Shown here one piece after another: positions 6,276 through 36,155 of a stretch of 64,000 bases of DNA. The stretch covers positions 8,942-72,941 of the forward strand of contig JABFSH010000067.1 in assembly GCA_013140705.1 (NCBI GenBank), in the 5' to 3' direction. Origin of the DNA: Methylococcaceae bacterium (lineage in GTDB: Bacteria > Pseudomonadota > Gammaproteobacteria > Methylococcales > Methylomonadaceae). The stretch's first letter is position 1, and each line of letters begins with the position of its first letter. The notes under the pieces are model-generated. The model worked only from the letters and a program-made list of their open reading frames with translations. It ran no database searches and was not told where the DNA came from. The translations under genes were made by a program, and so were the position numbers.

Positions 6276-6535
6276 TTTATTGAATTGCTTAGCCTGATTT
6301 TAATTAGCAGGACCGGGTACCTAAGATACGCAAACTTGTCTAGTGTTGTTTGCGGACGTGGCATTCAAATAAACAGTAAACTGAAACTCCCGCTGCATCT
6401 GGGCACGATAATAAACATTAATGTCGAGTTATTCCCTTGTGACACATAAAAAGAAGATAGTACCACCTTATTGAAAATACTAGAATAATTCCATGGTGAT
6501 AACGTCACCGATTTCTCCACGATGCCAGAATGGCT

Positions 6536-7978
6536 TCAGGCATAGATACTCAATAATCCCTTGCTTATCACAGCCAGACCATTTTCTGGTTCGTCAATAG
6601 CATCCATCGGCAAATCACTCGCTTCCGAGCCCGATTTTGCTGTAGTTTGGGCAAAATTCTGAGCTTGGGACCGTCCCTGATCGGATGAAAAATGTTGAGA
6701 AACGTTCACATCAACGAGATTGAGCTGCTGAGAAACCAGCATTTCCCTTAATTTGGGAATGGAGGCTTCCAGTGCTTCCCTGACTGAATTTTGCTGAGCA
6801 GCGAATGAAACAGTCGCTTGATCTTGACTGATATCAACCCTGACAGAAATGGGCCCCAAATTTGGAGGATTCAGTTTAATGTCTGCGCTGGGTATTGCCT
6901 TATTGGCCATCCATAAAATTCTTTCACCCAGATCATTACTCCAGCCAGGATGTGTAATCGGCTTTGACAGAACAGAAACTTCAGATCGAAGCTCAACTGA
7001 CTGTCTGTTTAGTTGACCCATCTCGGCAATCCCTCTTGGCAAGATTTTGTCCCCACCCGGTTGGGACTCTTGATTTTGTTGTCCATTATCGTCAGATATT
7101 TCAGCTTTTTCAAAGTAATTTAAATTAAACCCAGGCTTACTTTGTTCTGAAGGCGACTCACCTGTCGGCTTTTGTAATAAACCTTTTGAAGCATCATCAT
7201 TTTGGCCTGCGGATGACATCACACTAGTGTTTTGTGAGGCATTTTTCAACCCAGTAGCCAACGCCTGCTGATTATTGATAGACGAATCAACTGAATTTGA
7301 CACATGATTCTGCTCGACCGATGAACCTGTTGTAAGCAGTGAATTTAATAACGCTGCAGCCACCACGTCATTACTATGCGCATGCTCGGTATTGTCATGA
7401 TAATTTTTTAGATTGATTTGAGTATCTGTGGTAACAATGTTTTCAGAGTCCGAAGCTGATAATTCATGCGTTGACTGGGTAGTCGGCTCCTCAACATTCA
7501 TTAAAATTGGAGCTGCTTCAGATTGATTCCCCATTTGAATGACGCTTGAATTTGCATAATCTGCCGCCTCTAAAGTCTGCTGAGCTGAGCTTATACTCGC
7601 TGATTGACTGTTATTGGCTATTTTCAAGCTATCTGCCAATGCAGAAAGGGCTGCCTCAAGGTCAACATTATCATCAGTTTTATAGGTGGCCGGCAATTCA
7701 TTGCCAAAAAAGGCGGCAAGCTTTTGCATATCGCCACGGTTTCCTAACAAATCAACCAGGCTTTGTAATTTGTTTGAATCCGAAGCATTGGTATTTGTTT
7801 GAATGGATTTTAGCAAGTCTGAACTTTGAATAGTTTCAGCACCCAATTTCGTTAATTGTTCAAGAAAGGCCTGTGTAAATCCGGCCTGGAGATCAGAAGT
7901 GGTTAAGGACGAAACCGTTCCTTTCGTCAAAGTTTGAACAGGTAATACAGATAAAATGTTTGCGCCATCAATATTCAT
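6536..7978 (-). CDS. fliK: Flagellar hook-length control protein FliK
   Basis: The central region is Q/S/N-rich and low-complexity. The C-terminal Flg_hook-like domain reads LNPPNLGPISVRVDISQDQATVSFAAQQNSVREAL. It lies directly after fliJ. ATG at 7978 (preceded by GGAG) is preferred to the TTG at 7993 in the track. Confidence 0.8.
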   Translation of the reverse strand: MNIDGANILSVLPVQTLTKGTVSSLTTSDLQAGFTQAFLEQLTKLGAETIQSSDLLKSIQTNTNASDSNKLQSLVDLLGNRGDMQKLAAFFGNELPATYKTDDNVDLEAALSALADSLKIANNSQSASISSAQQTLEAADYANSSVIQMGNQSEAAPILMNVEEPTTQSTHELSASDSENIVTTDTQINLKNYHDNTEHAHSNDVVAAALLNSLLTTGSSVEQNHVSNSVDSSINNQQALATGLKNASQNTSVMSSAGQNDDASKGLLQKPTGESPSEQSKPGFNLNYFEKAEISDDNGQQNQESQPGGDKILPRGIAEMGQLNRQSVELRSEVSVLSKPITHPGWSNDLGERILWMANKAIPSADIKLNPPNLGPISVRVDISQDQATVSFAAQQNSVREALEASIPKLREMLVSQQLNLVDVNVSQHFSSDQGRSQAQNFAQTTAKSGSEASDLPMDAIDEPENGLAVISKGLLSIYA

Positions 7979-8023
7979 AAAACTATTCTCCAAAATTGAC
8001 CAACAGAGTCTATTGCATATTAA

Positions 8024-8039
8024 AGCATTTCATATGCCA
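8024..8039 (-). promoter_or_regulatory. Sigma-54 (RpoN) -24/-12 promoter candidate for fliK
   Basis: The minus strand reads TGGCATATGAAATGCT, with GG and GC separated by exactly 10 nt (consensus TGGCAC-N5-TTGCW). It overlaps the last codons and stop of fliJ and lies about 45 nt upstream of the fliK ATG. Confidence 0.55.
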
Positions 8040-8479
8040 TCTTTGCTGTTCCTACCCAACCGGGATGCTCTCTCGTCCATCTCCGACTGTTCCTTTCGGC
8101 TTTTCAGTTGAGTCTCCACCGCTATCGTTGAATCAAGAACTTTCTGCAAACCATTGGTTTTATGATGAATACTTTCCCACATCTTCCTTTTTTGCATTAA
8201 TTCTTCCTTACAAAGACACATCGCATGTTCCTGCCCCTCTATTGCCTGATCCAGCTTATCGATAAACGATTTGAATTCCAGCACTTGGGATATTTTGATA
8301 CCGTCGCGGCCCAGCTGATTAAAACTTTCCTGATATTCATTCCGATAACTCTTTAGGCTTTCAACTTGATTTTCAAGTTCTGTAAGTTTACGCTGGTAAA
8401 TACCCAGTCCCTTTAAGGCATTTTTTTCCTGTTCTGCCTTGAGTTCGACGAGCGTTTTAATCCGGTCTGATTTTTTCAT
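8030..8479 (-). CDS. fliJ: Flagellar export chaperone/stalk protein FliJ
   Basis: A 149-aa coiled-coil protein (KTLVELKAEQEKNAL...) sitting between fliI and fliK, which is the canonical position and size. Confidence 0.8.
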   Translation of the reverse strand: MKKSDRIKTLVELKAEQEKNALKGLGIYQRKLTELENQVESLKSYRNEYQESFNQLGRDGIKISQVLEFKSFIDKLDQAIEGQEHAMCLCKEELMQKRKMWESIHHKTNGLQKVLDSTIAVETQLKSRKEQSEMDERASRLGRNSKDGI

Positions 8480-8496
8480 TCCTTACCATCCTCGAT

Positions 8497-9846
8497 CTAA
8501 GTGCGACCCAGCATAATTTGCATTTCATTTAAGCTACGATCCATGTCAACCGGTTCATTCATATCCTGTTGAAGAAAATCGAGAATGGCAGCATTTTTTT
8601 CAATGGCCTTATCAATTCGGGAATCAGAGCCGGGTTGGTAGGCGCCAACGCTGATCAAATCGCGATTTTGTTGATACAGTGAGTATAGGCGTCTTATTTC
8701 TCGCGCCATCAATAAATGGCTAGTATCGGCAATATCCGGCATAACTCGGCTCACTGACGCTTCAATGTCGATCGCGGGAAAATGCCCAGATTCCGCCAAG
8801 TTTCTCGACAACACAATATGTCCATCCAGTACACCGCGAGCTGCATCAGCGATTGGATCGTTAGTATCATCTCCCTCTGCCAGCACTGTATAGAACGCTG
8901 TAATTGATCCGCCATCGACATTAGCATTTCCTGCACGTTCAACCAGATGCGGCAATTTGGCAAAAACAGACGGTGGATAACCTTTCGTTGCCGGCGGTTC
9001 ATCAATGGCCAGCGCAATTTCCCGATGGGCCTGGGCAAATCGCGTTAATGAATCCATCAATAAAAGCACATCCAGGCCCTGGTCACGAAAGAACTCGGCA
9101 ATACTGGTAGCAAGCAAGGCACCATGGACCCGCATTAATGGCGGACAATCCGCTGGCGTAGCAACAACGACGGCTCTTTTAAGCCCCTCTTCTCCGAGAA
9201 TTTTCTGAACGAACTCGTTCACCTCTCTTCCTCGCTCGCCAATCAACCCCACCACAACAATATCTGCAGTAGTAAATTTGGTCATCATACCAAGCAAAAT
9301 ACTTTTTCCGACACCGGTTCCTGCGAACAAGCCCATCCGCTGCCCTCTCCCTACACACAATAACGAATTTATAGCCCTGACACCAACGTCAAGCGATTCC
9401 CGAATGGGTTTTCTCGATAACGGATTTATGGGACTTCCGTTCAGCGAAATCTGAGCTTCGGTTTTCAGCGGGCCTTTGTCATCAAGAGGATTCCCGGCTC
9501 CGTCCAGCACTCGACCCAAGAGACCAAAGCCTACCCGAGCCAAATTATTCCCTCCCAAAGGAATCACCCGGCAATCCGGCTCAAGTCCATGTAACTCTCC
9601 GGTGGGCATTAGAAACACGCGTGAGCCAGCAAAACCAACGACTTCAGCTTCAATCCCGCGCCCTGTTTTTGTTTCAATACGGCAGCGAGAACCAATAGCC
9701 GCTCGACATCCAACAGCTTCCAGAGTCAAGCCAACCATGCGTGACAATTTACCTTCAACGACCAGTTCAATCGGCTCTGTTAATTTGGCTGAATAAGGCT
9801 TTAATTTATTCAGCCAAATTTGTGCGTGATTTCTTTGCAGCATCAC
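8497..9846 (-). CDS. fliI: Flagellum-specific ATP synthase FliI
   Basis: Walker A motif GTGVGKS and an F1/T3SS-ATPase-like sequence throughout. The start is GTG 9846 or ATG 9843, overlapping the fliH stop. Confidence 0.95.
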   Translation of the reverse strand: MMLQRNHAQIWLNKLKPYSAKLTEPIELVVEGKLSRMVGLTLEAVGCRAAIGSRCRIETKTGRGIEAEVVGFAGSRVFLMPTGELHGLEPDCRVIPLGGNNLARVGFGLLGRVLDGAGNPLDDKGPLKTEAQISLNGSPINPLSRKPIRESLDVGVRAINSLLCVGRGQRMGLFAGTGVGKSILLGMMTKFTTADIVVVGLIGERGREVNEFVQKILGEEGLKRAVVVATPADCPPLMRVHGALLATSIAEFFRDQGLDVLLLMDSLTRFAQAHREIALAIDEPPATKGYPPSVFAKLPHLVERAGNANVDGGSITAFYTVLAEGDDTNDPIADAARGVLDGHIVLSRNLAESGHFPAIDIEASVSRVMPDIADTSHLLMAREIRRLYSLYQQNRDLISVGAYQPGSDSRIDKAIEKNAAILDFLQQDMNEPVDMDRSLNEMQIMLGRT

Positions 9847-10628
9847 AATGATTTCTCCTCGACAACTATACCGCTATCCATGGACCAATCTATAGTGCTG
9901 GCATCCTTGCTGTCGTGTTCACGTTCATCGCCCAGTATGAAAGCCACTACAGCTGCCAACCGACTTTCAATCGTTGCATCAATACGGGACACATCCGTAT
10001 CGACCTTGCAGCCGCCACGGGTAATGAGAGGATCTTCAACCACCGCCCAGGCCGTTGACATTTCATCGAGGCATAATGTGGATCGGACTAGTTCGGCATC
10101 TTCAGGATGCAAGTACAATTGGATTTTCTGAGATGATAAGGGCAAAACATTTATTGCCTCCCTTACACTCGCAATAATCTGTCCAGGATCAAGTTTAATT
10201 TCCCTGCGGATGATTTGCGTGGCAATGCCGATTGAAAGCTTCACCAACTCCCTTTCAACCTCATTATCCAGCGCTTTGAATGGATCATTTAAGGAATCAA
10301 TTAAGGCAAGGAATTCCGTCGCCTTTTTTTCCAATTTTTCCTTATTTTCTTCATAGCCTTTTTTGGCACCTTCTTGAAAGCCTTGATCGAATCCCTCCTT
10401 ATAGCCTTCAACTTTGCCCTGTGCATAGGCCTCATCATAAGCCTGCTTTTGCATGGCTTCGATTTCATCCACCGTGAGGATCGGAGAAATTTCATCGTCA
10501 GGGTCGACTGACTCCGATTTTACAAAGCCATGATCACTATCAGCATGTTCAGAAATATCGGGTAAATTCCATGCACTCAAGGATGCCAGTTCTGACGATG
10601 AGAAACCTTGACTCCTAGACAAGCTCAT
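9843..10628 (-). CDS. fliH: Flagellar assembly protein FliH
   Basis: A 261-aa protein with an acidic N-terminal part and a FliH-type C-terminal domain. It lies between fliG and fliI and overlaps fliG by 14 nt. Confidence 0.85.
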   Translation of the reverse strand: MSLSRSQGFSSSELASLSAWNLPDISEHADSDHGFVKSESVDPDDEISPILTVDEIEAMQKQAYDEAYAQGKVEGYKEGFDQGFQEGAKKGYEENKEKLEKKATEFLALIDSLNDPFKALDNEVERELVKLSIGIATQIIRREIKLDPGQIIASVREAINVLPLSSQKIQLYLHPEDAELVRSTLCLDEMSTAWAVVEDPLITRGGCKVDTDVSRIDATIESRLAAVVAFILGDEREHDSKDASTIDWSMDSGIVVEEKSL

Positions 10629-11607
10629 CAGAACCTCCTAATTGAATCTCACCGGCATCCGCCAGTCTTTTGACTATGGTCAAAATTTCTTTTTGTGCCA
10701 ACTCAACTTCACTCAATTTAGCCGGCGGCGATGCCTCCAGATCATCACGCAACATTTCTGCGGCACGTCTGGACATATTGTTGAATATCTTCTCCTTCAA
10801 TGCATCACCCACACCACGCAGTGCCAGTAGCAATTGACTGGTTTGCACTTCGCGTAATAACGTTTGCATGCCTCTCTCGTCGAGGGATGCAAGATCTTCG
10901 AACACGAACATTTTTTCCTGGATTTCCTGCGCCAATTCGGCCCTGTGTTCAGCAATCTGGTTCATCACCAGATCACTGGCATTACTATCCATAAAATTCA
11001 AAATATTGGCAGCCGCATCAATACCACCAATCGTCGTTGACTTGACATTGTCGCCACCGGTTAGCTGTTTCTCCATGATTTGATCCAGTTCCCTCAAAGC
11101 GGCTGGCTGAATTCCCTTCATCGTAGCAATTCGCATAAGCAGGTCAGATCGCATGTTTTCAGGCAGATACATCATGACTTCTGCCGCCTGATCACTATCC
11201 ATCAGTGACAGAATCGTTGAAATAATTTGAGGATGTTCCAAACGAATCATATCGGCAATCGAGCGGGTATCCATCCATTTCAATTGCTCAATCCCTTTGG
11301 TGCTTCCGCCCTGTAAAATTCTATCCAGAATACTATTCGCCTTGTCTGCACCCAAAGCACTGATCAGAACAGTACGAATGTATTCATCGGTATCCATACC
11401 CAACGCCGTCTGACTTTTGACTGCTACGATAAACTCTTCAACAACCTCATCCATCATGCTGATCGAAATGTCGCCCACACTAGCCATTGTGGTACCCAGT
11501 ATCTGTACCTCTCTCGGCGTCATGTGTTTCAGGATAAGAGCAGCCCGATCCATGCCTAACGCCAACAGCAAGATTGCGGCCCGATCAGATTGTGTTAATT
11601 CAGACAT
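10615..11607 (-). CDS. fliG: Flagellar motor switch protein FliG
   Basis: A 330-aa protein with a typical FliG N-terminus (SDRAAILLLALGMDRAALILKHMTPREVQ) and C-terminal torque-helix region. Confidence 0.95.
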   Translation of the reverse strand: MSELTQSDRAAILLLALGMDRAALILKHMTPREVQILGTTMASVGDISISMMDEVVEEFIVAVKSQTALGMDTDEYIRTVLISALGADKANSILDRILQGGSTKGIEQLKWMDTRSIADMIRLEHPQIISTILSLMDSDQAAEVMMYLPENMRSDLLMRIATMKGIQPAALRELDQIMEKQLTGGDNVKSTTIGGIDAAANILNFMDSNASDLVMNQIAEHRAELAQEIQEKMFVFEDLASLDERGMQTLLREVQTSQLLLALRGVGDALKEKIFNNMSRRAAEMLRDDLEASPPAKLSEVELAQKEILTIVKRLADAGEIQLGGSDELV

Positions 11608-11608
11608 T

Positions 11609-13375
11609 TTATTTAATCCACATTTTAATAACTTGCGCCACTATTTTAGGATCATCGTCAACCAGGCGTTTGACATATTCCAGTCGATGTTCGTAACTTT
11701 GCGGCATATCCAGAAGAAGCACATCCGCCATATCATTAGGCAAACTGAAACCAGCAGCAGCCTGTTCTTGTGAAACAGCCACGGCGAACGGCTTGCCATT
11801 TTCATCAAAACTCACCTGCCCCCCCGTCCCGGCAGACTTTCCGTCTTCCTCAGATTTCAGTGCTGCTTTGATTTCCTCTTCAGTACGCCCACTCAGACGT
11901 TTCATGGTTGGGCGCAATACACCAAACAGCAGGAACAGTACAACCAGAACTGCAGTCACTTGTTTCATGAGATCAAGAAACCAGCCCTGTTTCCAAAAGG
12001 GCACTTCCGGCAGGGCTTCGATTTCATCTGGTATTTTGAATGCAACATTAGTAACGGTCACTTGATCGCCTCGACTGCTATCAAAGCCAACCGCCTGTTT
12101 GACCAACTCACTAAAGCGATTGATGTCTTCAAGTGAATACGCTTGATTTTTTATGGAACCATCCGCTTGCGTCATATGTCTGTCATCGACGACAACAGCC
12201 ACTGACAAGCGACGCAATAATCCGGTTGCCAGACGCGTGTGCGTAATGGTTTTATCCAGCTCAAAATTTCGAGTGGCATTTTTGGTTGCTGACCCGGGGG
12301 TTGATGCGGTATTGCCTGAGGCTCCCGGTACGGAACCGTCAGACGGTGTCGTCGTTTGTGGAGCCAACCCCGCATCAGTGGGTTGATTCGATAAGGCACC
12401 CGGTACGCCTTGAACTGGAGATAATGAGCTTTGTTCTTCGGATGTTTGTTCGCTTCGTAAGGCAGGCAAATCCGGATTGAACATTTCTTGGGTCTTGTCA
12501 GTGACCGTAAAATCAACATCGGCTGAAATTTGAGTTCTCATACCATCCCCGCCCACTAACGGGGATAAAATATTTTCTATCCGATCCATTAGATGTTCTT
12601 CGATATTTTTTTTGTATTCAAACTGTTTGGACGTTAGATTAACTTCAGATGATGCATCGTTACTGCTTAACAGCTGACCTTTTTGATCAACGACCGTCAC
12701 CTGTTCCGCTTCAAGCTGAGGAACGCTGGATGCAACTAGATGCACAATGGATTCAATTTGACCTTTGTCCAAGGAGCGACCTTGATATAAATTGACTACA
12801 ACCGATGCACTTGGCTTTTTGCGATCTCTCACAAACACCGATTGAACTGGCAATGCCAGTAATACCCTGGCAGACTTCACATTTTGGATAGCCATAATGG
12901 TCCTGGCTATCTCACCTTCCAATGCCCGTTGAAACCGAACCATTTCAACACTTTTACTGGTACCAAAACCTTGTTCCTTGTCCAGTATTTCATAGCCCAA
13001 ACTAGTACTTCTCGGCAAACCCTGAGCCGCCAGCTTCAATTTTATATCGTCGACTTGATCCTTTGGCACCAATATGGCACCTGTACCTGGTTCCACTTTA
13101 TATTTGACACCTTGGGTATCGAGAACCTGAAGAACATCAGCGACATCCTTTTCTCCGATCTCGGCAAATAAGCGCCCATAGGTCGGTGTCTGCGACCACA
13201 AAACTATAGCAACGCCTATGGCAACACTAAAAGCCAGCCCCAGCATGAGAGCCAGTTGTTTTCCTATAGTCAGGCGAGCTAACCCTTTAATCATGGGATG
13301 GGCGACTTCCGCCTCCGCATTCAGGACTTGTGGGATTGTAGCTTCAACCAGATTATTACTGTTTTGCTCGCTCAT
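11609..13375 (-). CDS. fliF: Flagellar MS-ring protein FliF
   Basis: A 588-aa protein with an N-terminal TM segment, a YscJ/FliF-like periplasmic region and a second TM segment near the C-terminus. It ends 1 nt before fliG. Confidence 0.95.
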   Translation of the reverse strand: MSEQNSNNLVEATIPQVLNAEAEVAHPMIKGLARLTIGKQLALMLGLAFSVAIGVAIVLWSQTPTYGRLFAEIGEKDVADVLQVLDTQGVKYKVEPGTGAILVPKDQVDDIKLKLAAQGLPRSTSLGYEILDKEQGFGTSKSVEMVRFQRALEGEIARTIMAIQNVKSARVLLALPVQSVFVRDRKKPSASVVVNLYQGRSLDKGQIESIVHLVASSVPQLEAEQVTVVDQKGQLLSSNDASSEVNLTSKQFEYKKNIEEHLMDRIENILSPLVGGDGMRTQISADVDFTVTDKTQEMFNPDLPALRSEQTSEEQSSLSPVQGVPGALSNQPTDAGLAPQTTTPSDGSVPGASGNTASTPGSATKNATRNFELDKTITHTRLATGLLRRLSVAVVVDDRHMTQADGSIKNQAYSLEDINRFSELVKQAVGFDSSRGDQVTVTNVAFKIPDEIEALPEVPFWKQGWFLDLMKQVTAVLVVLFLLFGVLRPTMKRLSGRTEEEIKAALKSEEDGKSAGTGGQVSFDENGKPFAVAVSQEQAAAGFSLPNDMADVLLLDMPQSYEHRLEYVKRLVDDDPKIVAQVIKMWIK

Positions 13376-27590: not shown

Positions 27591-28856
27591 CTACCTGACA
27601 TAGTGTAGTTTTTGTCCCAACATCTCGGGCGTCACCAATACGACACCGCCTTCGCTGACATGAAATCTTTTTTTATCTTCCGCGAGATTTTCACCAATGA
27701 TCGTTCCTTCAGGCACGACACAATTTTTTTCGATGATCGCCTTGGTGATGCGGCAATTACGACCGATATTAACTTCCGGTAAAACAATACTGTCCTGTAC
27801 AGTGGTATACGAATTGACTCGTACATTTGAGCATACCAGGGAATGTCTGATGGTTGCCCCCGAAATAACACAACCACCTGAAATCATGGAGTCTACCGCC
27901 ATACCGCGTCGATCGTCCTCATCGAAAACAAATTTTGCCGGCGGCGTTTGTTCCTGATAGGTCCAGATTGGCCATGTTGTGTCATACAAATTCAAATCGG
28001 GCTTAACGCTGACTAATTCCATATTGGCCGCCCAATAAGCATCGATGGTTCCTACATCACGCCAATAACTTTGCTCGCCACTTTGCAAATCCAGGAATGG
28101 ATAGGCATTAACAACATATTTATCAATGACCGAAGGAATAATATCCTTACCAAAATCATTCGTCGACGTTTTGGTATCGGCATCCTTGAGCAGTTGTTCC
28201 CACAAAAAGCCGGCATTGAATATATAAATACCCATCGATGCCAAGGCGGTGTCGGTACGACCCGGCATTACCGGTGGGTTTGCTGGTTTTTCTATGAACG
28301 CCTTAACTCTACGACTTGAATCAATATCCATAACGCCAAATGCGGTCGCATCTTTTAGCGACACCTCAAGACAACCTATTGTCAAATCCGCTTTTTTTTC
28401 AACATGGTCGGCCAACATGGATGCATAATCCATCTTGTATATATGATCGCCGGCCAGCACCAAAATGTATTCCGGCTTACGCGTACGAAGAATATCAATA
28501 TTCTGAAAAATGGCATCAGCCGTACCTTTATACCAGGATGTCTCGTCAATTCTCTGCTGAGCCGGCATTAAATCAACATATTCACCAAACTCACCACGTA
28601 AAAATCCCCAACCCTGTTGAATATGCCGTATCAGTGAATCCGCTTTGTATTGTGTCAGTATACCAATTTTACGGATGCCGGAATTTACGCAGTTGGATAA
28701 TGGAAAATCGATAATTCGAAACTTGCCACCAAAAGGTACTGCTGGTTTTGCGCGCCAATCCGTCATATTCATTAAGCGTGAACCACGACCTCCCGCCAGA
28801 ATTAAAGCTATTGTATTTCGAGTTAACTGATGGATATTATGACTTGACGCCGACAT
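27591..28856 (-). CDS. glgC: Glucose-1-phosphate adenylyltransferase
   Basis: It has the [12 protein letters not shown] motif and a left-handed beta-helix C-terminal half. ATG 28856 ([13 protein letters not shown]) is preferred to the track start at 28886. Confidence 0.93.
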
Positions 28857-28947
28857 TTTACATCTCCAAGTGGAATAAACTGACAATTAGTGTTGCGTTT
28901 GGTAAGATTTGCTGAACAACCATTTTACTATACTGAGGCTCAACAAA

Positions 28948-31344
28948 GTGAAAAAGCGTTCAAATAATACACTTGACTCCGATTCAACAAAAATCGCAGG
29001 AGAAAGCACAGTTGATTCGGCTGATACAACAGCTAAAAAAACCAGCAAATCAACTTTTTCAAGTACGGATGCCCAAAAATCAAAAAACACGGAAACATCC
29101 ACAAAAAAAGCAGCAGACTTATCTGAAATAACTGAATCCAAAATCGTTGTGAAATCTGAACCTTCAAGCCGAATCCCTGCGCCGGCGCCTCTTGATGCCG
29201 ATTGTGTAAAAATCGTTGAAGCCCGACATCACGATCCTTTTTCAGTTTTGGGACGTCATCAAAAAAATGATCAAATACAAATAAAAGTTTACCTGCCCTA
29301 TGCAGAAACCGTTCGTTTAGGTAGCAACGGCCCCTATTTGAATCGAATTAGTGGCACCGATTTTTTTGTCCATGAAACTTCCATTGGATCATTTCCCTCG
29401 GAACATTACAAATTATCCTGGCTGGACAAAGACGGCTATAGCCACGAGAACTATGATCCTTATGATTTTGGAACCCAGTTGCCCGAATTTGACCAGCATT
29501 TATTTGGCGAAGGCAGGCATTGGCACGTTTATAAAAAACTGGGCTCTCATATTCATACCGTCGACGGTATTGATGGTGTGCTATTTGCCGTTTGGGCGCC
29601 CAATGCCTCTCGTGTCAGCTTGGTTGGCGATTTCAACCACTGGGACGGTCGCAACAATCCGATGCGCAATTTGGGTGGAAGCGGCATCTGGGAAATCTTC
29701 ATCCCTGGACTCAAAGCAGGTTCTTTATACAAGTTTGAAATTTTAAATCGTGATACGAATGAAATTCTGGTAAAAACCGACCCCTACGGACAACAGTTCG
29801 AATTCCGTCCGGCAACATCGTCCGTCGTCATCAAGGAAGGTACTTATGTATGGCAGGACGTACAATGGATGTCGCAACGCGTCAAACATGATTGGCTACA
29901 TGAGCCGATGGCCATTTATGAAGTCCATCTAGGGTCATGGCGACGTGATAATCAGGGCAACTTCCTTGGCTATCGAGCGCTTGCTCACGAGCTGGTGGAC
30001 TATGTTAAAAATATGGGCTTTACCCACATCGAATTATTACCGGTTACAGAGCATCCGCTCGATATTTCCTGGGGTTATCAAACTACGGGCTATTTTGCAC
30101 CGACCAGTCGCTTTGGCTCTCCGGATGATTTTCGCTTTTTTGTTGATGCCTGTCATCAAAACAACATCGGCGTCATTCTCGACTGGGTTCCTGCCCATTT
30201 TCCAAAGGATTCGTTTGCGCTGGCGCGTTTTGACGGTAGTCCACTGTACGAGCATGAAGATCCGCGTAAAGGCGAACACCGCGACTGGGGCACACTGATT
30301 TATAATTTTGGCCGTAATGAAGTAAAAAACTTTTTGCTTGCCAGCGCCATTTTCTGGCTTGAGGAATTCCATCTGGATGGTTTGAGGGTTGATGCTGTGG
30401 CGTCCATGTTATATCTGGATTATTCCCGCGAAAATAATGACTGGATTCCCAACATGTACGGTGGCAACGAGAATCTTGAAGCGATCGACTTCCTGAGAGA
30501 ACTGAACACAGTCACCCACGATCAGCATCCGGGCACTGTGGTTATGGCTGAAGAGTCCACAGCCTGGCCACAAGTAACCCGTCCGACCTGGACCGGTGGC
30601 CTGGGTTTTTCAATGAAATGGAACATGGGCTGGATGCACGACACACTTGCCTATATGAGCGAAGAACCGATTCATCGAAAATACCATCACGATCAGCTGA
30701 CTTTCGGCATGCTTTATGCTTTTACTGAAAACTTTGCCCTGCCTTTTTCTCACGATGAGGTTGTGCATGGCAAAGGTTCGTTACTCAATAAAATGCCGGG
30801 AGATGAATGGCAGCGCTTTGCCAATCTGAGATTGTTGTATACCTATATGTATACCTATCCCGGTAAAAAATTATTGTTCATGGGCTGTGAATTCGGACAG
30901 GGTACGGAATGGAGTTCCACCAGTTCACTGGACTGGTATGTACTGGATTATGCACATCACCGCGGTCTACAAACACTCGTCAAAGACCTAAATCATATCT
31001 ATAAAACGCATCCGGCTCTGTTCTCGCATGATTTTGATCATCATGGTTTTGAATGGATTGACTGCCACGATGTACAGCAATCAGTCATCAGCTATCGCCG
31101 AAAAAATAAATTTGAAGAATTAATAGTTGTTCTCAATTTTACGCCGGTGCCCAGAGAAAATTATCGCATTGGAGTTCCTGAGCCCGGAACCTATACCGAA
31201 ATTTTCAATTCGGACTCCAAATATTATGACGGCACAAATCTAGGTAATGGCGCCACGTTATCAGAACCTGTCAACTGGATGAACCAGCCGCATTCCATTA
31301 ATCTCTCTTTGCCGCCTTTAGGCGCTGTAATTTTAAAGTTATAA
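28948..31344 (+). CDS. glgB: 1,4-alpha-glucan branching enzyme (GH13); start uncertain
   Basis: The canonical GlgB core runs from [11 protein letters not shown] onward. GTG 28948 follows GAGG at 9 nt and adds an S/T/K-rich extension of about 65 aa. GTG 29149 would give a canonical 731-aa protein but has no visible SD. The track start is TTG 28909. Confidence 0.88.
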
Positions 31345-31362
31345 GGGATTGCAAACGATCAC

Positions 31363-32796
31363 ATGAAAAAAGTACTCTTCGTAACCAGTGAAGCACATCC
31401 TTTAATCAAGACCGGCGGTCTGGCAGACGTTTCTGGTAGTCTGCCAAAGGCACTGGCCGAATTGTCGCAGGATGTTCGCTTGATCATTCCCAAGTATCAG
31501 GCATTAAAAATTAGCGGCGAACTTCGCTATGTCTGCTCACTTCGCGTTGACAATAAAAATGTCAAAATTCTGGAAACGCGCATGCCCGGCAGCCCGGTTA
31601 CCGTCTGGTTAGTCGACTATCCCGGTTATTTTAATTATCCGGGCAATCCCTATGTTGACGAACTCGGTGAACCTTGGCCTAATAACGCGGAACGCTTTGC
31701 GCTTTTCTGTCGCACAGTGGTCGAAGTTGCCATGGACAGAGTCCACCAGGACTGGAAACCTGATGTCGTTCACTGCAATGACTGGCAAAGCGGCCTGGTT
31801 CCCGCTCTGTTATCGCTGGAATACGATAGACCATCGACCGTATTCACCATACATAACATGGCCTATCAGGGCTTGTTTCCAGGTACAACTGCAGCGACCT
31901 TAAACATGCCCGGTCAATTGATGCACCCATTGGGTCTTGAATTTCACAGCATGCTGTCTTTTATTAAGGGCGGCCTGGTTTATTCGGATTACATCACAAC
32001 TGTCAGTCCAACATATGCACTCGAAATTCAAACGCCGGAATTTGGCTATGGCCTTGAAGGCTTACTGGATCACCGCAAGGAATTTTTAGGCGGTATTATC
32101 AACGGCATTGACCTGGATCAATGGAATCCCAAAACCGATACGTTAATCAGCCAAAATTTCACTGAATCAACGCTCAGTAAAAAGCAGGTCAATAAATCGG
32201 CATTACAGAAAAAAATGGGGCTCCCGGTCAACGGCCGTATCCCGTTGTTTGGTCTGATTGGTCGCCTGGTCGAACAAAAAGGCATTGATTTGATTCTCGA
32301 CAGCCTTCCCGAAATGTTGACCATGCCTCTACAATTTGTTCTGCTTGGCAGTGGCGACAAAGCCTACGAGAAGCTACTGGAAGCTCTGGCGCAATCCTAT
32401 CCCGACAAGATTGCTTTAAACATCGGCTATAACGAGGAACTGGCACATTCGATCGAAGCCGGTGCAGATATATTCCTGATGCCGTCCCGATTTGAACCCT
32501 GCGGATTAAACCAGATGTACAGCCAGCGCTACGGCACCATTCCCATCGTCAGAAAAACCGGCGGACTGGCCGATACCGTCGTCGATGCATTGCCACACAC
32601 CATCGCCGATAACACCGCTACCGGCATTATTTTTAATGAGGCAACGGCAGGCTCCTTGCTCGAAAGCGTCAAACGGGCGCTACTTTTATACAGCAATGCA
32701 GAGATCTGGATAAAGCTTCAGACCGCCGGCATGAAAAAAGATTTTTCCTGGCAACAAAGCGCCCAGCGCTACTTAGCTGTCTACAACAATTTGTAA
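31363..32796 (+). CDS. glgA: Glycogen synthase (GT5)
   Basis: It has KTGGLADV at the N-terminus, is 477 aa long and starts 18 nt after glgB. Confidence 0.93.
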   Translation: MKKVLFVTSEAHPLIKTGGLADVSGSLPKALAELSQDVRLIIPKYQALKISGELRYVCSLRVDNKNVKILETRMPGSPVTVWLVDYPGYFNYPGNPYVDELGEPWPNNAERFALFCRTVVEVAMDRVHQDWKPDVVHCNDWQSGLVPALLSLEYDRPSTVFTIHNMAYQGLFPGTTAATLNMPGQLMHPLGLEFHSMLSFIKGGLVYSDYITTVSPTYALEIQTPEFGYGLEGLLDHRKEFLGGIINGIDLDQWNPKTDTLISQNFTESTLSKKQVNKSALQKKMGLPVNGRIPLFGLIGRLVEQKGIDLILDSLPEMLTMPLQFVLLGSGDKAYEKLLEALAQSYPDKIALNIGYNEELAHSIEAGADIFLMPSRFEPCGLNQMYSQRYGTIPIVRKTGGLADTVVDALPHTIADNTATGIIFNEATAGSLLESVKRALLLYSNAEIWIKLQTAGMKKDFSWQQSAQRYLAVYNNL

Positions 32797-32926: not shown

Positions 32927-34441
32927 ATGAACAAGATCCAGCTTCTGTATGTAGAAAATGTGATTACCCGAAAAAAACGCTCGGCCCAGCAGCAACTGTC
33001 GTTTTTTATGGTGCTGGAAAACTTAGGTTTCGACAAGCAGGTCGACGTTATCTGGCGTGGAGAGGATGCGGTATGGCACACATTACCCGCCAGTTTTCAC
33101 AGCCATCTGCAGCCCAACAAGGAATATTGGCTTGCCCAAATCACTCGCGAAGGCTCTTCCGAGCAATCGCTGCCCGGTAATATCGAGTTTGCTCTGCGTT
33201 ATCAGTGTTCAGACCAGGAAGTCTGGGATAATAACGAGTCAATGAATTATTCCAGTCAGGCAGATTCCGGCATCGTAATCGTCCGTGACCGGCAATTGCA
33301 GAATATTGACTTCTGCCCTGCATTTCATGAAGGTCAAAAATACCTGCCTGTCACGGTTGCTGTTGACCAGTCTCTTCATGCCCAGAAAGTAACAATTCAC
33401 TGGACGACTGATAATTGGCTCAGTAGCCATAAAACGTCCTGCCATTTCAAACGAAATTATTGGGACAAAGCGTATTTGAGTAACGCCCGAAACCCCAATC
33501 AGTATGGTGTCGAACTTTGGAAAGGCTGGCTAAAAGTAGCCAATGCCTTCCATGTGCAATACAGCATCGCCTGTGAAAGCCAGGGCCAGGTTTTATGGGA
33601 AAACAATACCGGCACTAATTATTCCGTCTCACGCAGCAAACCGCTAACCGTGCTAATCCTCAATCTACATTGTTATCAGGAAGACAATCAGGATTACAAA
33701 TTTTCCCAAATTGCCCGAGCCATTGACGAACGGCAGGTTGATATCGTCTGCCTTCAGGAAGTCGCTGAACTCTGGAATGATGGCTTAGGCAATTTCGAGA
33801 CTAATTCAGCCAAAATTATCAATGATCGCCTTGCTCAACCCTTTCTCCTTTATACCGACTGGTCGCACTTGGGATTTGATAAGTATCGCGAAGGAGTTGC
33901 CATTTTAAGCCGATACCCCATCATACGGCAGGATTCAAAATATGTGTCGGATACACACGATGTGTACAGCATTCATTCAAGAAAAGTCGTCATGGCCCAG
34001 ATCTTCATTCCCTTTATGGGACTGATTAATGTGTTCTCCGCACACCTGAGCTGGTGGGAAGATGGCTTTGCCCAGCAATTTAGCTGTTTACGCGATTGGG
34101 CGGATAGTGAGCAATCCGAATCCGTTAAAGCCACGCTGCTCTGTGGCGATTTTAATATTGCTGCCGGTTCAACCGGCTATCGTCTGGTGGTAGATGCTCA
34201 CGAATATGAAGACCAGTTTTTGGCTGCCAACGCTCACGGTGTGTTTGAGAAAGTTTTCAGGGTCAACGATCCGTATTGGCAAAACTATCTAGCTGAAGAC
34301 TATCGAATTGATTATATTTTCTTAAATAAAAACAATGATTTTCGTGTCACCTCAGGCGAAATATTATTTACGGAGCACGATTATGGGCGGGTTTCCGATC
34401 ACTGCGGCTATCTGATGACATTCGAGCCAGGTAGAAATTAA
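32927..34441 (+). CDS. Fusion of two CBM21-like glycogen/starch-binding modules with an endonuclease/exonuclease/phosphatase (EEP) domain
   Basis: Module 1 reads VLENLGFDKQVDVIW...IEFALRYQCSDQEVWDNNESMNYS. Module 2 reads VTIHWTTDNW...VQYSIACESQGQVLWENNTGTNYS. The EEP motifs CLQEV, GDFN and SDH are present. There is no signal peptide. GAGGAA lies 7 nt before the ATG. Confidence 0.75.
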   Translation: MNKIQLLYVENVITRKKRSAQQQLSFFMVLENLGFDKQVDVIWRGEDAVWHTLPASFHSHLQPNKEYWLAQITREGSSEQSLPGNIEFALRYQCSDQEVWDNNESMNYSSQADSGIVIVRDRQLQNIDFCPAFHEGQKYLPVTVAVDQSLHAQKVTIHWTTDNWLSSHKTSCHFKRNYWDKAYLSNARNPNQYGVELWKGWLKVANAFHVQYSIACESQGQVLWENNTGTNYSVSRSKPLTVLILNLHCYQEDNQDYKFSQIARAIDERQVDIVCLQEVAELWNDGLGNFETNSAKIINDRLAQPFLLYTDWSHLGFDKYREGVAILSRYPIIRQDSKYVSDTHDVYSIHSRKVVMAQIFIPFMGLINVFSAHLSWWEDGFAQQFSCLRDWADSEQSESVKATLLCGDFNIAAGSTGYRLVVDAHEYEDQFLAANAHGVFEKVFRVNDPYWQNYLAEDYRIDYIFLNKNNDFRVTSGEILFTEHDYGRVSDHCGYLMTFEPGRN

Positions 34442-34559
34442 ACGAGCACAGAAAATAATGAAATTTAGGGAGAGACTGTGAATTAAAATGACTGAGGCTC
34501 ACGAGAAAACCTTTCAAGATCCCAAGAAAATTGATTAGCCGCTTTTAACGAGGTAAAAA

Positions 34560-36155
34560 ATGCAGTTAGCTGAACACTATGCCAGACCCATACATGGTAA
34601 TTTGGGTGGTTTTTTTTCAAGAGTCAACGATTACGGTGATTTATTTTACATTCGCTGGGGAAAAATTGACTTTGACGTATTTTATGGCGTTCAGGCCAAT
34701 GTAAAAGTCATTATCAAAGTGTATCGTGATCACAATATTCGTGAAACTTACGTCGTCGACACTGACGCTTACGATGTCCAGTGGGATCGCCATAAACGCC
34801 ATACACGCGACTTTTATATCCATCCTGTTTCAGCCAATTTTGGCCACATAAACTGCATCAAGTTTTCATTTATCGTTCACATGAACGAACACTCGATTGC
34901 CTCGCAAAACGATTACATTTTCATGGATTGGCATCAGTTGCAGGGTGATAAGCCCCAATACCGGCATATTACGTCGGAATGGGCCACCGCCAATAGCTAT
35001 CGCACTCATGAATTAAGTGCCGATACGTTACAGAATGACGTCGATTGGTATAATCACCACGTTGATTCACTGAGGCTTACCCCAAAATTTACCAAAGGCC
35101 AGTTATATCACCCGTATCACCCCAAACGCTTCATTCACGATCATATCGATAAAGTGATCCACAGCAAGCATGAAAATCCGGGTCGACTCTGCACCATCAA
35201 GGTCAGTGTCGATTGTATAGATGATTATGACTTTATTAACCATCTCATTCACGCCCATCATCAGGGCGTTTGTGTACAGTGTGTGGTTGACTGGCGAAAA
35301 ATGACTTTGACCAATAGCCAGAACTACGCCCGACTGAAGCGTTCCGGTATCGAATTGCTGGGTGTGTTTTGCACACCGAAACATCATCTGATTGAAGTTG
35401 AACCTGACATGCATACCAAATTCGTAATCTTTAATGACGATGACTGCATCCTGGGCTCATTCAACATCACATTTGATCGCTGGTGGGCAAATTGGGAGTC
35501 CGGTATGACATTTCATTCACGCGGCATTTGCCGTTTGCTGGACAATATCTTCCAGAGTCAGCGCGGCGGCGTCAACCAAAAATATGGCATCGACCCGCTG
35601 AGTCCGTTCAACTTGTTTTATACCTTCGGTCGGCATGCCATGATTAATGGCAAGTATTACAGGCCCCATCATGCCATATTAGCCGAAATCCATCGGGCCA
35701 GACATTCAATCAAATTATCGCTGTTCCTGATTGGCGAACTGCTGGGTGATCATCATGACAGCGTTATCGATGCCCTGATTCAGGCAAAGCACCGTGGAGT
35801 TTATGTGCATCTTCTGCTAAACGGACATCTGGCCAGACAAGGCCGCGTGGGTGTTGAACGCTCGATGCACGATGAATTAAACCGGCCGCTATTGCCTGCC
35901 GTGCAGCGTCTCAAATCGGCCGGCATCATAGTTGGTTTGGTCTATGGACAGGATGACCATAAGATTCCCTATTCGCCGATTCACTCCAAATATTGCGTCA
36001 TCGACGACACCATTGTCCTGGAAGGCAGCTTTAATTGGTACAACACATCCACTTTTTCCCATGACCTGGTGGTTTTGGTCAACAATCGTGAGATTGCGCA
36101 GCCTTATCTGTATGAATTCGAAGAAATTCAACGCTCGTTTAGGGTGTATTATTAG
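34560..36155 (+). CDS. Phospholipase D superfamily protein with two HKD motifs and an unassigned N-terminal domain of about 190 aa
   Basis: HKD1 is HTKFVIFNDDDCILGSFN (His at codon 285). HKD2 is HSKYCVIDDTIVLEGSFN (His at codon 475). There is no signal peptide. GAGGT lies 6 nt before the ATG. Confidence 0.8.
   Translation: MQLAEHYARPIHGNLGGFFSRVNDYGDLFYIRWGKIDFDVFYGVQANVKVIIKVYRDHNIRETYVVDTDAYDVQWDRHKRHTRDFYIHPVSANFGHINCIKFSFIVHMNEHSIASQNDYIFMDWHQLQGDKPQYRHITSEWATANSYRTHELSADTLQNDVDWYNHHVDSLRLTPKFTKGQLYHPYHPKRFIHDHIDKVIHSKHENPGRLCTIKVSVDCIDDYDFINHLIHAHHQGVCVQCVVDWRKMTLTNSQNYARLKRSGIELLGVFCTPKHHLIEVEPDMHTKFVIFNDDDCILGSFNITFDRWWANWESGMTFHSRGICRLLDNIFQSQRGGVNQKYGIDPLSPFNLFYTFGRHAMINGKYYRPHHAILAEIHRARHSIKLSLFLIGELLGDHHDSVIDALIQAKHRGVYVHLLLNGHLARQGRVGVERSMHDELNRPLLPAVQRLKSAGIIVGLVYGQDDHKIPYSPIHSKYCVIDDTIVLEGSFNWYNTSTFSHDLVVLVNNREIAQPYLYEFEEIQRSFRVYY

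Follow-up and report, generated by a model that had tools for sequence, protein, structure and literature searches.

Positions 34560 to 36155 (+ strand) of a 64,000-nucleotide (nt) stretch of DNA from a Methylococcaceae bacterium (GenBank assembly GCA_013140705.1, contig JABFSH010000067.1, positions 8,942 to 72,941 of the forward strand), hereafter the window, hold a gene whose product, judged from its sequence, represents a distinct, uncharacterised subfamily of the phospholipase D (PLD) superfamily that has a new N-terminal domain and is linked with both an EEP phosphoesterase and alpha-glucan metabolism. Our best reading is that this PLD protein acts on glucans, as a phosphodiesterase or phosphotransferase, in partnership with an EEP phosphatase encoded by the gene directly 5' of its own. 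The substrate would be a phospho-linked decoration of alpha-glucan, with the PLD protein opening a diester and EEP removing the monoester that remains, and we tentatively assign this proposal a probability of about 0.45. An active enzyme is expected because both HKD motifs and residues N311 and E313 are invariant, the structural model is confident, and the model matches solved two-lobe PLDs. The link to alpha-glucan is drawn because the EEP partner carries two CBM21 modules, alpha-glucan genes lie near the pair in 28 of 40 loci, operons of distant relatives have the same association, and a sister clade carries the starch-binding domain CBM20.

Catalytic core and N-terminal domain

The gene and the segments of its product map to the window as follows.

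34550..34554, + strand: ribosome-binding site GAGGT, 5 nt ahead of the PLD ATG
34560..36155, + strand: PLD-superfamily gene, with its ATG at 34560 and its stop codon ending at 36155; 531 amino acids (aa)
34560..34967, + strand: N-terminal all-beta sandwich of the AlphaFold2 model, residues 1 to ~136, strands within 8-122
34968..35120, + strand: helical linker, residues ~137-187, carrying the invariant F177 of an FT(K/R)G motif
35121..35579, + strand: PLD lobe 1, residues ~188-340
35412..35465, + strand: HKD motif 1, HTKFVIFNDDDCILGSFN, H285 to N302
35481..35498, + strand: clade-specific W-A-N-W-E-S segment, just 3' of motif 1
35652..36152, + strand: PLD lobe 2, residues ~365-531
35982..36035, + strand: HKD motif 2, HSKYCVIDDTIVLEGSFN, H475 to N492

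A first-pass annotation of this DNA had reported two intact HKD motifs at codons 285 and 475, each followed by GSFN, and our reading of the motifs agrees. Motif 1 follows the pattern H285-T-K287-x4-N292-x6-G299-S-F-N302 and motif 2 the pattern H475-S-K477-x4-D482-x6-G489-S-F-N492, which places two motifs of the superfamily type HxK(x)4D(x)6G(S/T)xN in the 531-aa chain. Position 292 of motif 1 is Asn instead of the usual Asp in the close clade and Asp in more distant relatives. The Pfam model PLDc_2 matches the protein twice (E-value of 1.5e-34). F177, H285, K287, S300, N302, N311, E313, A409, G413, H475, K477, D482, and N492 are invariant across the 85 sequences compared, which come from three clades; N311 and E313, which lie in the segment after motif 1, are unchanged in 85 of 85. 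With motifs that are intact and strictly conserved in these sequences, an active phosphodiesterase or phosphotransferase, as the same annotation had proposed, is the natural prediction. Because we found no signal peptide and no transmembrane or hydrophobic segment in the PLD protein (the highest Kyte-Doolittle value over any 19-residue window is 1.26), it is predicted to be soluble and cytoplasmic. Histidine accounts for 7.9% of all residues in the protein and for 8.4% of those in the stretch 1-190, and the N-terminal histidines are mostly not conserved beyond the close clade. Although H187, H193, and H228 do not vary among the 65 sequences of one alignment of homologues, they do in the CBM20 clade.

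A full-length AlphaFold2 model, computed from an alignment of 65 diverse homologues, has a predicted local distance difference test score (pLDDT) of 92.9 and a predicted template modelling score (pTM) of 0.93. It consists of a beta sandwich at residues 8-122, a mostly helical linker at about 124-187, and two PLD lobes at 188-531. When the full model was compared to the Protein Data Bank (PDB) with Foldseek, the matches were two-lobe PLDs, namely 7e0m, vaccinia F13, PLD3/4, and PLD1/2, with E-values of 1e-17 to 1e-13, identities of 12-18%, and template modelling (TM) scores of about 0.4-0.5 on the query. None of these matches covers the N-terminal domain. AlphaFold2, Foldseek, and Pfam thus agree on a bilobed alpha/beta PLD fold. 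The bacterial PLD 7e0m, vaccinia F13, the PLD3/PLD4 exonucleases, and human PLD1/2 have this same bilobed fold but lack the N-terminal sandwich, and their substrates are phospholipid and ssDNA, with no known glucan link.

The first 190 or so residues had been described as matching no family, and this held: neither residues 1-202 of the PLD protein nor 29 homologous N-termini matched a Pfam family, even at E-values of up to 10. Modelled alone, residues 1-145 reach a pLDDT of 93.9. Foldseek searches with this domain gave weak matches to the TEAD YAP-binding domain, to the CBM21 domains of PTG and PPP1R3B, and to RhoGDI (E-values of 0.007-0.02, TM scores of 0.35-0.47), which we take to indicate a generic Ig-like sandwich. 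Because the Pfam and hhalign comparisons were negative and Foldseek returned generic Ig-like sandwiches, we refrain from naming it a carbohydrate-binding module. A hidden Markov model of the domain also detects it in relatives that carry a CBM20 (E-values of 6e-20 to 1e-8), and its best-conserved residues, E5, R56, E62, S115, and Y119, are polar or charged and do not form an aromatic sugar platform. Given this residue make-up and the presence of the sandwich in relatives with a CBM20 of their own, we read it as an integral, clade-defining accessory domain on the catalytic core rather than as a swappable carbohydrate-binding module. The suggestion of the first-pass annotation that these residues form a beta-sandwich targeting module is therefore borne out in its structural half, the sandwich being predicted confidently, while for its role we favour that of an accessory domain over that of a targeting module.

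We compared the PLD protein to characterised PLD families by scoring NCBIfam equivalog models against it, in bits relative to each model's cut-off. The cardiolipin synthase model (TIGR04265) scores 25.7 against 290, and the N-terminal membrane helices of that enzyme are missing, as no hydrophobic segment is present. NucT models score at most 25 against cut-offs of 211-351, polyphosphate kinase 1 (PPK1; TIGR03705) scores 15.8 against 465.85, and DISARM DrmC (NF038319) scores 42.4 against 133, with glycogen genes as the neighbours of the PLD gene. The C-terminal domain of PPK1 (PF13090) reaches 25.1 bits against a cut-off of 25.8 over just 56 residues. PADLOC gives weak single-lobe matches to DrmC and Mko for the PLD protein and no match for its EEP partner, and no DISARM or other defence genes were found nearby. 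Searched as a single sequence against all PDB sequences, the PLD protein barely reaches Zucchini/MitoPLD (E-value of 0.004). A family profile searched against solved structures matches the PLD 7e0m, gives weak matches to the PssA-type structures 8yr5 and 3hsi, and reaches the PPK structure 2o8r at an E-value of 0.31. Zucchini/MitoPLD (PLD6), Nuc, and NucT have the HKD motif and the fold of an individual lobe in common with the PLD protein. However, they are proteins of 150-220 aa with one HKD that act on nucleic acids as homodimers, whereas the PLD protein, set in a glycogen context, has two HKD lobes in 531 aa, an N-terminal beta sandwich, and an EEP protein as its obligate partner. A Nuc/NucT/Zucchini-type assignment was therefore rejected, the similarity being at the level of the lobe only. 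Thus, the PLD protein combines the features of an alpha-glucan-associated PLD clade (the sandwich, the FT(K/R)G linker, two HKDs, and an NWE segment after motif 1) with scores far below the cut-offs of characterised PLD families, and its linkage to glycogen genes is kept across genomes and phyla; neither orthology to a characterised PLD nor a lack of conserved glycogen linkage, which together would have spoken against the first-pass annotation, was found.

The EEP partner and the alpha-glucan gene context

The genes around the PLD gene are listed here.

27591..28886, - strand: glgC, divergent from glgB
28909..32796, + strand: glgB-glgA, 5' of the EEP-PLD pair; a recurrent but not universal neighbour
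32927..34441, + strand: partner gene, two CBM21 modules fused to an EEP phosphoesterase, 504 aa
36184-36981: short secretin-like gene, 265 aa, 3' of the PLD gene

The local gene order is glgC(-), glgB, glgA, 2xCBM21-EEP, PLD, secretin-like gene, glcDEF, and glnD(-). The stop codon of the EEP gene and the PLD ATG are separated by 118 nt; this gap and the gene's own GAGGT ribosome-binding site are as previously annotated. We looked for terminator-like hairpins in the glgA/EEP and EEP/PLD gaps and saw none. The partner matches the EEP structure 3teb with an E-value of 1.2e-21.

As the first-pass annotation had recommended, we checked how often the PLD and CBM21-EEP genes occur together. In 41 related genomes, their presence and absence are identical: 15 have both, 26 have neither, and none has only one. 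In 72 of the 74 species loci with enough upstream sequence, the PLD gene is directly preceded by the EEP gene in the same orientation, and the gap between the two has a median of ~84 nt. CBM21-EEP is thus the obligate partner gene of PLD. The two exceptions are L055, where the ~1.4 kb ahead of the PLD gene contain no long open reading frame (ORF) and may be the remains of an EEP gene (L055:8607-10001), and L061, where a DUF6513/pterin-binding gene occupies that position (L061:714-2126). The pair can also be intact away from glycogen genes, as in L009, where it sits between ethanolamine and arabinose genes. A shorter EEP paralogue without CBM21, 37% identical to the partner's catalytic part, is encoded elsewhere in the source genome, outside the window (C20:28017-28844), and four related genomes that have the pair also have such a paralogue.

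Linkage of the pair to glycogen genes, a second check that had been recommended, is likewise retained from genome to genome and between phyla. Scanning the species genomes of GTDB gave 80 species-level loci, 40 of which have at least 8 kb of flanking sequence on both sides; alpha-glucan genes are present in 28 of these 40 full-flank loci. The architecture of the window, glgC divergent from glgB-glgA-EEP-PLD, accounts for 14 of the 80, and a second architecture, [glgX] DUF4912-GH57 branching enzyme-EEP-PLD, for 26, several of which have a convergent glgA-glgB on the 3' side. Genes for DUF4912 and then a GH57 branching enzyme (with BE_C) lie directly 5' of EEP-(Fic)-PLD in three phyla (L020:9227-11516, L004:3571-6974, and L107:2105-4643); a literature search on DUF4912, an uncharacterised domain, returned nothing relevant. 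When proteins from the same loci are compared to those of the window, the median identities are 85% for GlgC, 79% for PLD, 77% for GlgB, 72% for GlgA, and 62% for EEP, a sign of strong constraint on the PLD protein.

Close homologues, at 73-88% identity, occur in 15 of the 25 genera of the window's family, and none was found in the other sampled families of the order. The 80 loci include members of Methylobacter, Methylomonas, Crenothrix, Methylovulum, Methyloglobulus, Methylicorpusculum, and Methylomicrobium, and, at 73-78% identity, at least 10 species of Candidatus Accumulibacter, Propionivibrio, and one Gallionella metagenome-assembled genome (MAG). In a maximum-likelihood tree, Accumulibacter and Propionivibrio form one clade (support 100/100) that is sister to the methanotroph clade. 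An identity of 73-78% between the PLD proteins of Methylomonadaceae and those of Accumulibacter and Propionivibrio, of the Betaproteobacteria lineage, points to an ancient horizontal transfer or else to exceptional constraint. Methanotrophs, Candidatus Accumulibacter, and Propionivibrio are noted glycogen storers. The gene order in Accumulibacter is carbamoyltransferase-EEP-PLD-phosphoglycerate kinase. In L058, L072, L078, L086, and L091 (~6500-13100), a NodU/CmcH-type carbamoyltransferase gene lies 5' and a phosphoglycerate kinase gene 3' of the pair, with the carbamoyltransferase stop codon overlapping the EEP start in L086; both neighbours are specific to Accumulibacter, and no glycogen gene was found within 10 kb of the pair in these five loci.

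An exhaustive search of 1.8 billion representative proteins revealed full-length relatives at 28-35% identity in a Vulcanimicrobiota/Xenobiia MAG, an Eremiobacterota-labelled MAG, Nitrospirota including Candidatus Magnetoovum, and Syntrophorhabdales. EEP genes also precede these distant PLD relatives in L004, L005, L007, and L107. The Vulcanimicrobiota MAG and Candidatus Magnetoovum have a five-gene operon, DUF4912-GH57BE-EEP-Fic-PLD, and in L005 the genes EEP-Fic-PLD adjoin glgB. The Fic proteins encoded between EEP and PLD (L004:7970-9964, L005:2024-3646, and L107:6317-7993) are 540-664 aa long and orthologous to each other at 34-45% identity, and one relative is a 1079-aa Fic::PLD fusion (L007:8001-11240). 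The Fic motif HPFWDGNGRVGR is intact in L005, while the copies in L004 and in the fusion deviate from it. A search of the window's genome for a Fic orthologue gave only generic Fic-motif matches at an E-value of 5e-6, and no Fic partner was found in any of the 80 close loci.

The nearest other PLD clade in that search (E-values of 1e-26 to 1e-10) consists of proteins of 550-1190 aa that align from residue ~180 on, most of which end in a C-terminal CBM20. These PLD-CBM20 proteins, found in Myxococcota, Clostridium, and others, share their N-terminal domain and invariant catalytic residues with the PLD protein and are annotated just as 'carbohydrate-binding protein' or 'PLD-like domain-containing protein'. 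They differ in their C-terminal CBM20, in that many are secreted, in occurring as tandem paralogues, and in having an EEP partner in only one of four loci (L001, where the EEP gene is 3' of the PLD pair). In two of four loci, they lie beside GH13, GH31, and LamB genes. Since signal or lipoprotein peptides are present in many of these proteins (from Clostridium, Myxococcota-like, and other MAGs), this clade probably acts on extracellular starch. Tandem paralogues are frequent (L001:10001-13830, L006:6532-9941, and L105:6463-10193), and the first copy in L006 is divided between two ORFs, one for the PLD and one of 108 aa for the CBM20.

Proposed function and competing explanations

PLD-superfamily enzymes work by attack of a histidine on a phosphodiester, which yields a covalent phospho-histidine intermediate that is resolved by water or an alcohol. 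We propose that the PLD protein is the catalytic subunit of a conserved two-enzyme CBM21-EEP/PLD module at the glycogen particle, with H285 or H475 as the attacking histidine. Its substrate would be a phosphodiester-linked group on, or delivered to, an alpha-1,4/1,6-glucan, for example a glucose-1-phosphate-type diester or a nucleotidyl or phospho-alcohol diester on a glucose hydroxyl. Cleavage of the diester by the PLD protein would leave a glucan phosphomonoester, which the glycogen-tethered EEP would strip, so that branching enzyme, synthase, and phosphorylase again have unmodified glucan to act on. The N-terminal sandwich would be rigidly packed on the core, probably shaping the substrate site rather than serving as a free tether. 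In other phyla, the Fic protein, as a nucleotidyl- or phospho-transferase, would write the ester that PLD and EEP handle.

This arrangement resembles that of laforin (CBM20 plus DSP), SEX4/LSF2, and GWD/PWD, which are likewise phospho-ester enzymes tethered to alpha-glucan by starch-binding modules; GWD itself works through a phospho-histidine intermediate. The eukaryotic glucan phosphate machinery uses DSP and PPDK-like folds, whereas the machinery proposed here would use the entirely different PLD and EEP folds. A second analogy, for a PLD-EEP pair that travels with a Fic writer, is offered by Tdp1, which has the PLD fold, and Tdp2, which has the EEP fold; both cleave tyrosyl-phosphodiester adducts. 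The motifs of Tdp1 are of the HKN type and lack the GSxN context, and we know of no detectable specific sequence relationship between Tdp1/Tdp2 and the PLD/EEP pair.

Several observations weigh against a glucan substrate. The PLD protein itself has no recognised carbohydrate-binding module. The resemblance of its sandwich to CBM21 is weak (TM scores of 0.36-0.47, E-value of ~0.01) and level with that to TEAD and RhoGDI, and by profile comparison the N-terminal domain is not a CBM21: hhalign aligns it to the partner's two CBM21 copies with probabilities of 4.7% and 0.6%, while those two repeats match each other at 95.9%. By family profile, the closest solved proteins are nucleases: Zucchini/MitoPLD (4ggj) at an E-value of 7e-13, Nuc (1byr) at 2e-7, and NucT (6ehi) at 2e-5. 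About 30% of the full-flank loci, including all those from Accumulibacter, have no nearby glycogen gene. The role of the Fic partner would suit a protein target equally well, and the many CBM20-type PLDs with signal or lipoprotein peptides cannot have cytoplasmic glycogen as their substrate. Glycogen phosphodiesters are, moreover, not established in bacteria.

Four other explanations were weighed against the proposal that the pair opens and clears a phospho-linked glucan decoration. The PLD protein might be a writer rather than an eraser, that is, a glucan phosphotransferase whose product EEP removes, in a solubilising cycle like that of GWD and SEX4. It would take a phospho-group or phospho-sugar from a nucleoside diphosphate (NDP)-sugar, a nucleotide, or polyphosphate through phospho-histidine, as do PssA, cardiolipin synthase, and PPK1. 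PLD-superfamily enzymes often transfer to alcohols, and the C6 hydroxyl of glucose is a primary alcohol; weak Pfam matches to PPK1 C-terminal domains (PF13090) recur in this protein and many relatives; and a writer and an eraser in one operon would explain the strict pairing of PLD with EEP. No prokaryotic glucan kinase is known (PMC13666283). We nevertheless regard this explanation as unlikely: the PLD protein has no recognisable nucleotide-binding domain, the similarity to PPK1 is insignificant (E-value of 0.31 in the profile search of structures; 15.8 bits against 466 for TIGR03705), and the Fic enzyme is a more obvious writer in other phyla. A protein-directed role, in which PLD and EEP strip nucleotidyl or phospho adducts such as Fic-added AMP from glycogen-metabolising enzymes, would account for the EEP-Fic-PLD operons, for the Fic::PLD fusion, and for the intact Fic motif in L005. 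It would also fit the eukaryotic CBM21, which targets a protein phosphatase and not a glucan phosphatase and whose structures in PTG and PPP1R3B are among the Foldseek matches. Yet the source genome and all 80 close loci keep the pair strictly while having no Fic, and the secreted CBM20-PLD relatives lack such protein targets, which makes a protein-directed role quite unlikely in our view.

Hydrolysis of a nucleotide-sugar would place the PLD protein at an earlier step, where it would cleave ADP-glucose or a related nucleotide and so throttle glycogen synthesis, with EEP dephosphorylating the product. The Nudix enzyme AspP and plant NPP1 are precedents for such throttling, PLD-family PssA takes an NDP-activated donor and is represented by the weak matches 8yr5 and 3hsi, and in 14 loci the pair sits behind glgA, whose product consumes ADP-glucose. 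However, a small-molecule substrate would leave both the CBM21 and CBM20 tethers and the secreted relatives without an explanation, and we consider this role very unlikely. Equally poor are the prospects of an ordinary PLD-type nuclease or phospholipase, engaged in defence, DNA or RNA turnover, or lipid remodelling, for which the position in a glycogen locus would be meaningless. Zucchini, Nuc, and NucT are indeed the closest solved sequences, DrmC is weakly matched in both PADLOC and NCBIfam, and EEP is also a nuclease fold. Against this, every family score lies far under its cut-off, there are no defence genes nearby and no PADLOC match for the partner, a membrane segment of the cardiolipin synthase type is missing, and both the fusions to CBM21 and CBM20 and the placement in glycogen operons are seen repeatedly in at least four phyla.

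A broader and more speculative extension of the proposed erasing role, and one that we think unlikely as a whole, is that PLD and EEP, with Fic in other phyla, reversibly decorate storage glycogen with phospho-linked groups and thereby control its solubility, branching, and mobilisation. Fic or PLD would write a nucleotidyl, phospho-sugar, or phosphate ester on glucose hydroxyls through a phospho-histidine intermediate, and PLD and EEP would then process and erase it. Such a system would have arisen convergently, from unrelated folds, as the bacterial equivalent of GWD/SEX4 in plants and laforin in animals. A 2026 review describes glucan-phosphorylation machinery as unknown in prokaryotes, yet notes that E. 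coli glycogen has some phosphate, and it refers to an older report that glycogen contains phosphodiester groups (PMC13666283). PLD, laforin, and glycogen phosphate are all absent from a 2024 review that covers the alpha-glucan enzymes of prokaryotes (PMC11046441). According to these reviews, no prokaryotic enzymes that add or remove covalent glycogen phosphate are known, and the generality of bacterial glycogen phosphorylation is left open (PMC13666283, PMC11046441). Our literature searches on PLD with CBM20 and glycogen, and on methanotroph glycogen with PLD, returned nothing relevant.

Phosphate-ester processing on stored glycogen is thus the probable activity of the PLD protein, as far as genes and predicted structures indicate, and it is one not yet described in bacteria. 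The PLD-EEP module is strictly paired and more conserved than glycogen synthase itself (79% for PLD versus 72% for GlgA), at least three phyla have it within operons for glycogen synthesis and branching, and the sister clade carries a fused starch-binding domain. It therefore provides clonable candidates for asking whether bacterial glycogen carries phospho-ester decorations and how these are handled, and it introduces both a new PLD subfamily, distinguished by a new N-terminal domain, and what may be an enzymatic triad of PLD, EEP, and Fic. Glycogen cycling in the hosts, which are methanotrophs, Candidatus Accumulibacter, and Propionivibrio, underlies methane bioconversion and enhanced biological phosphorus removal.

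Other neighbouring genes

The secretin-like gene and glcDEF were considered as parts of the module and rejected, as they are not conserved neighbours; the secretin-like gene is present in only 3 of the 80 loci, where it recurs at 48% identity and adjoins PLD or glgA (L055:11667-12434, L068:1002-1748, and L069:1056-1805). A gene for an APH-fold plus AAA_33 kinase, 38 nt 3' of the PLD gene at L013:9473-11086 (the same record as L051:11634-13244), was likewise rejected as a module part, since it occurs only in one Methylicorpusculum MAG record. Lastly, a DarT-Macro (DarTG-like) pair lies ~1.6 kb 5' of a Myxococcota PLD-CBM20 gene (L106:4670-6381), which is probably incidental.

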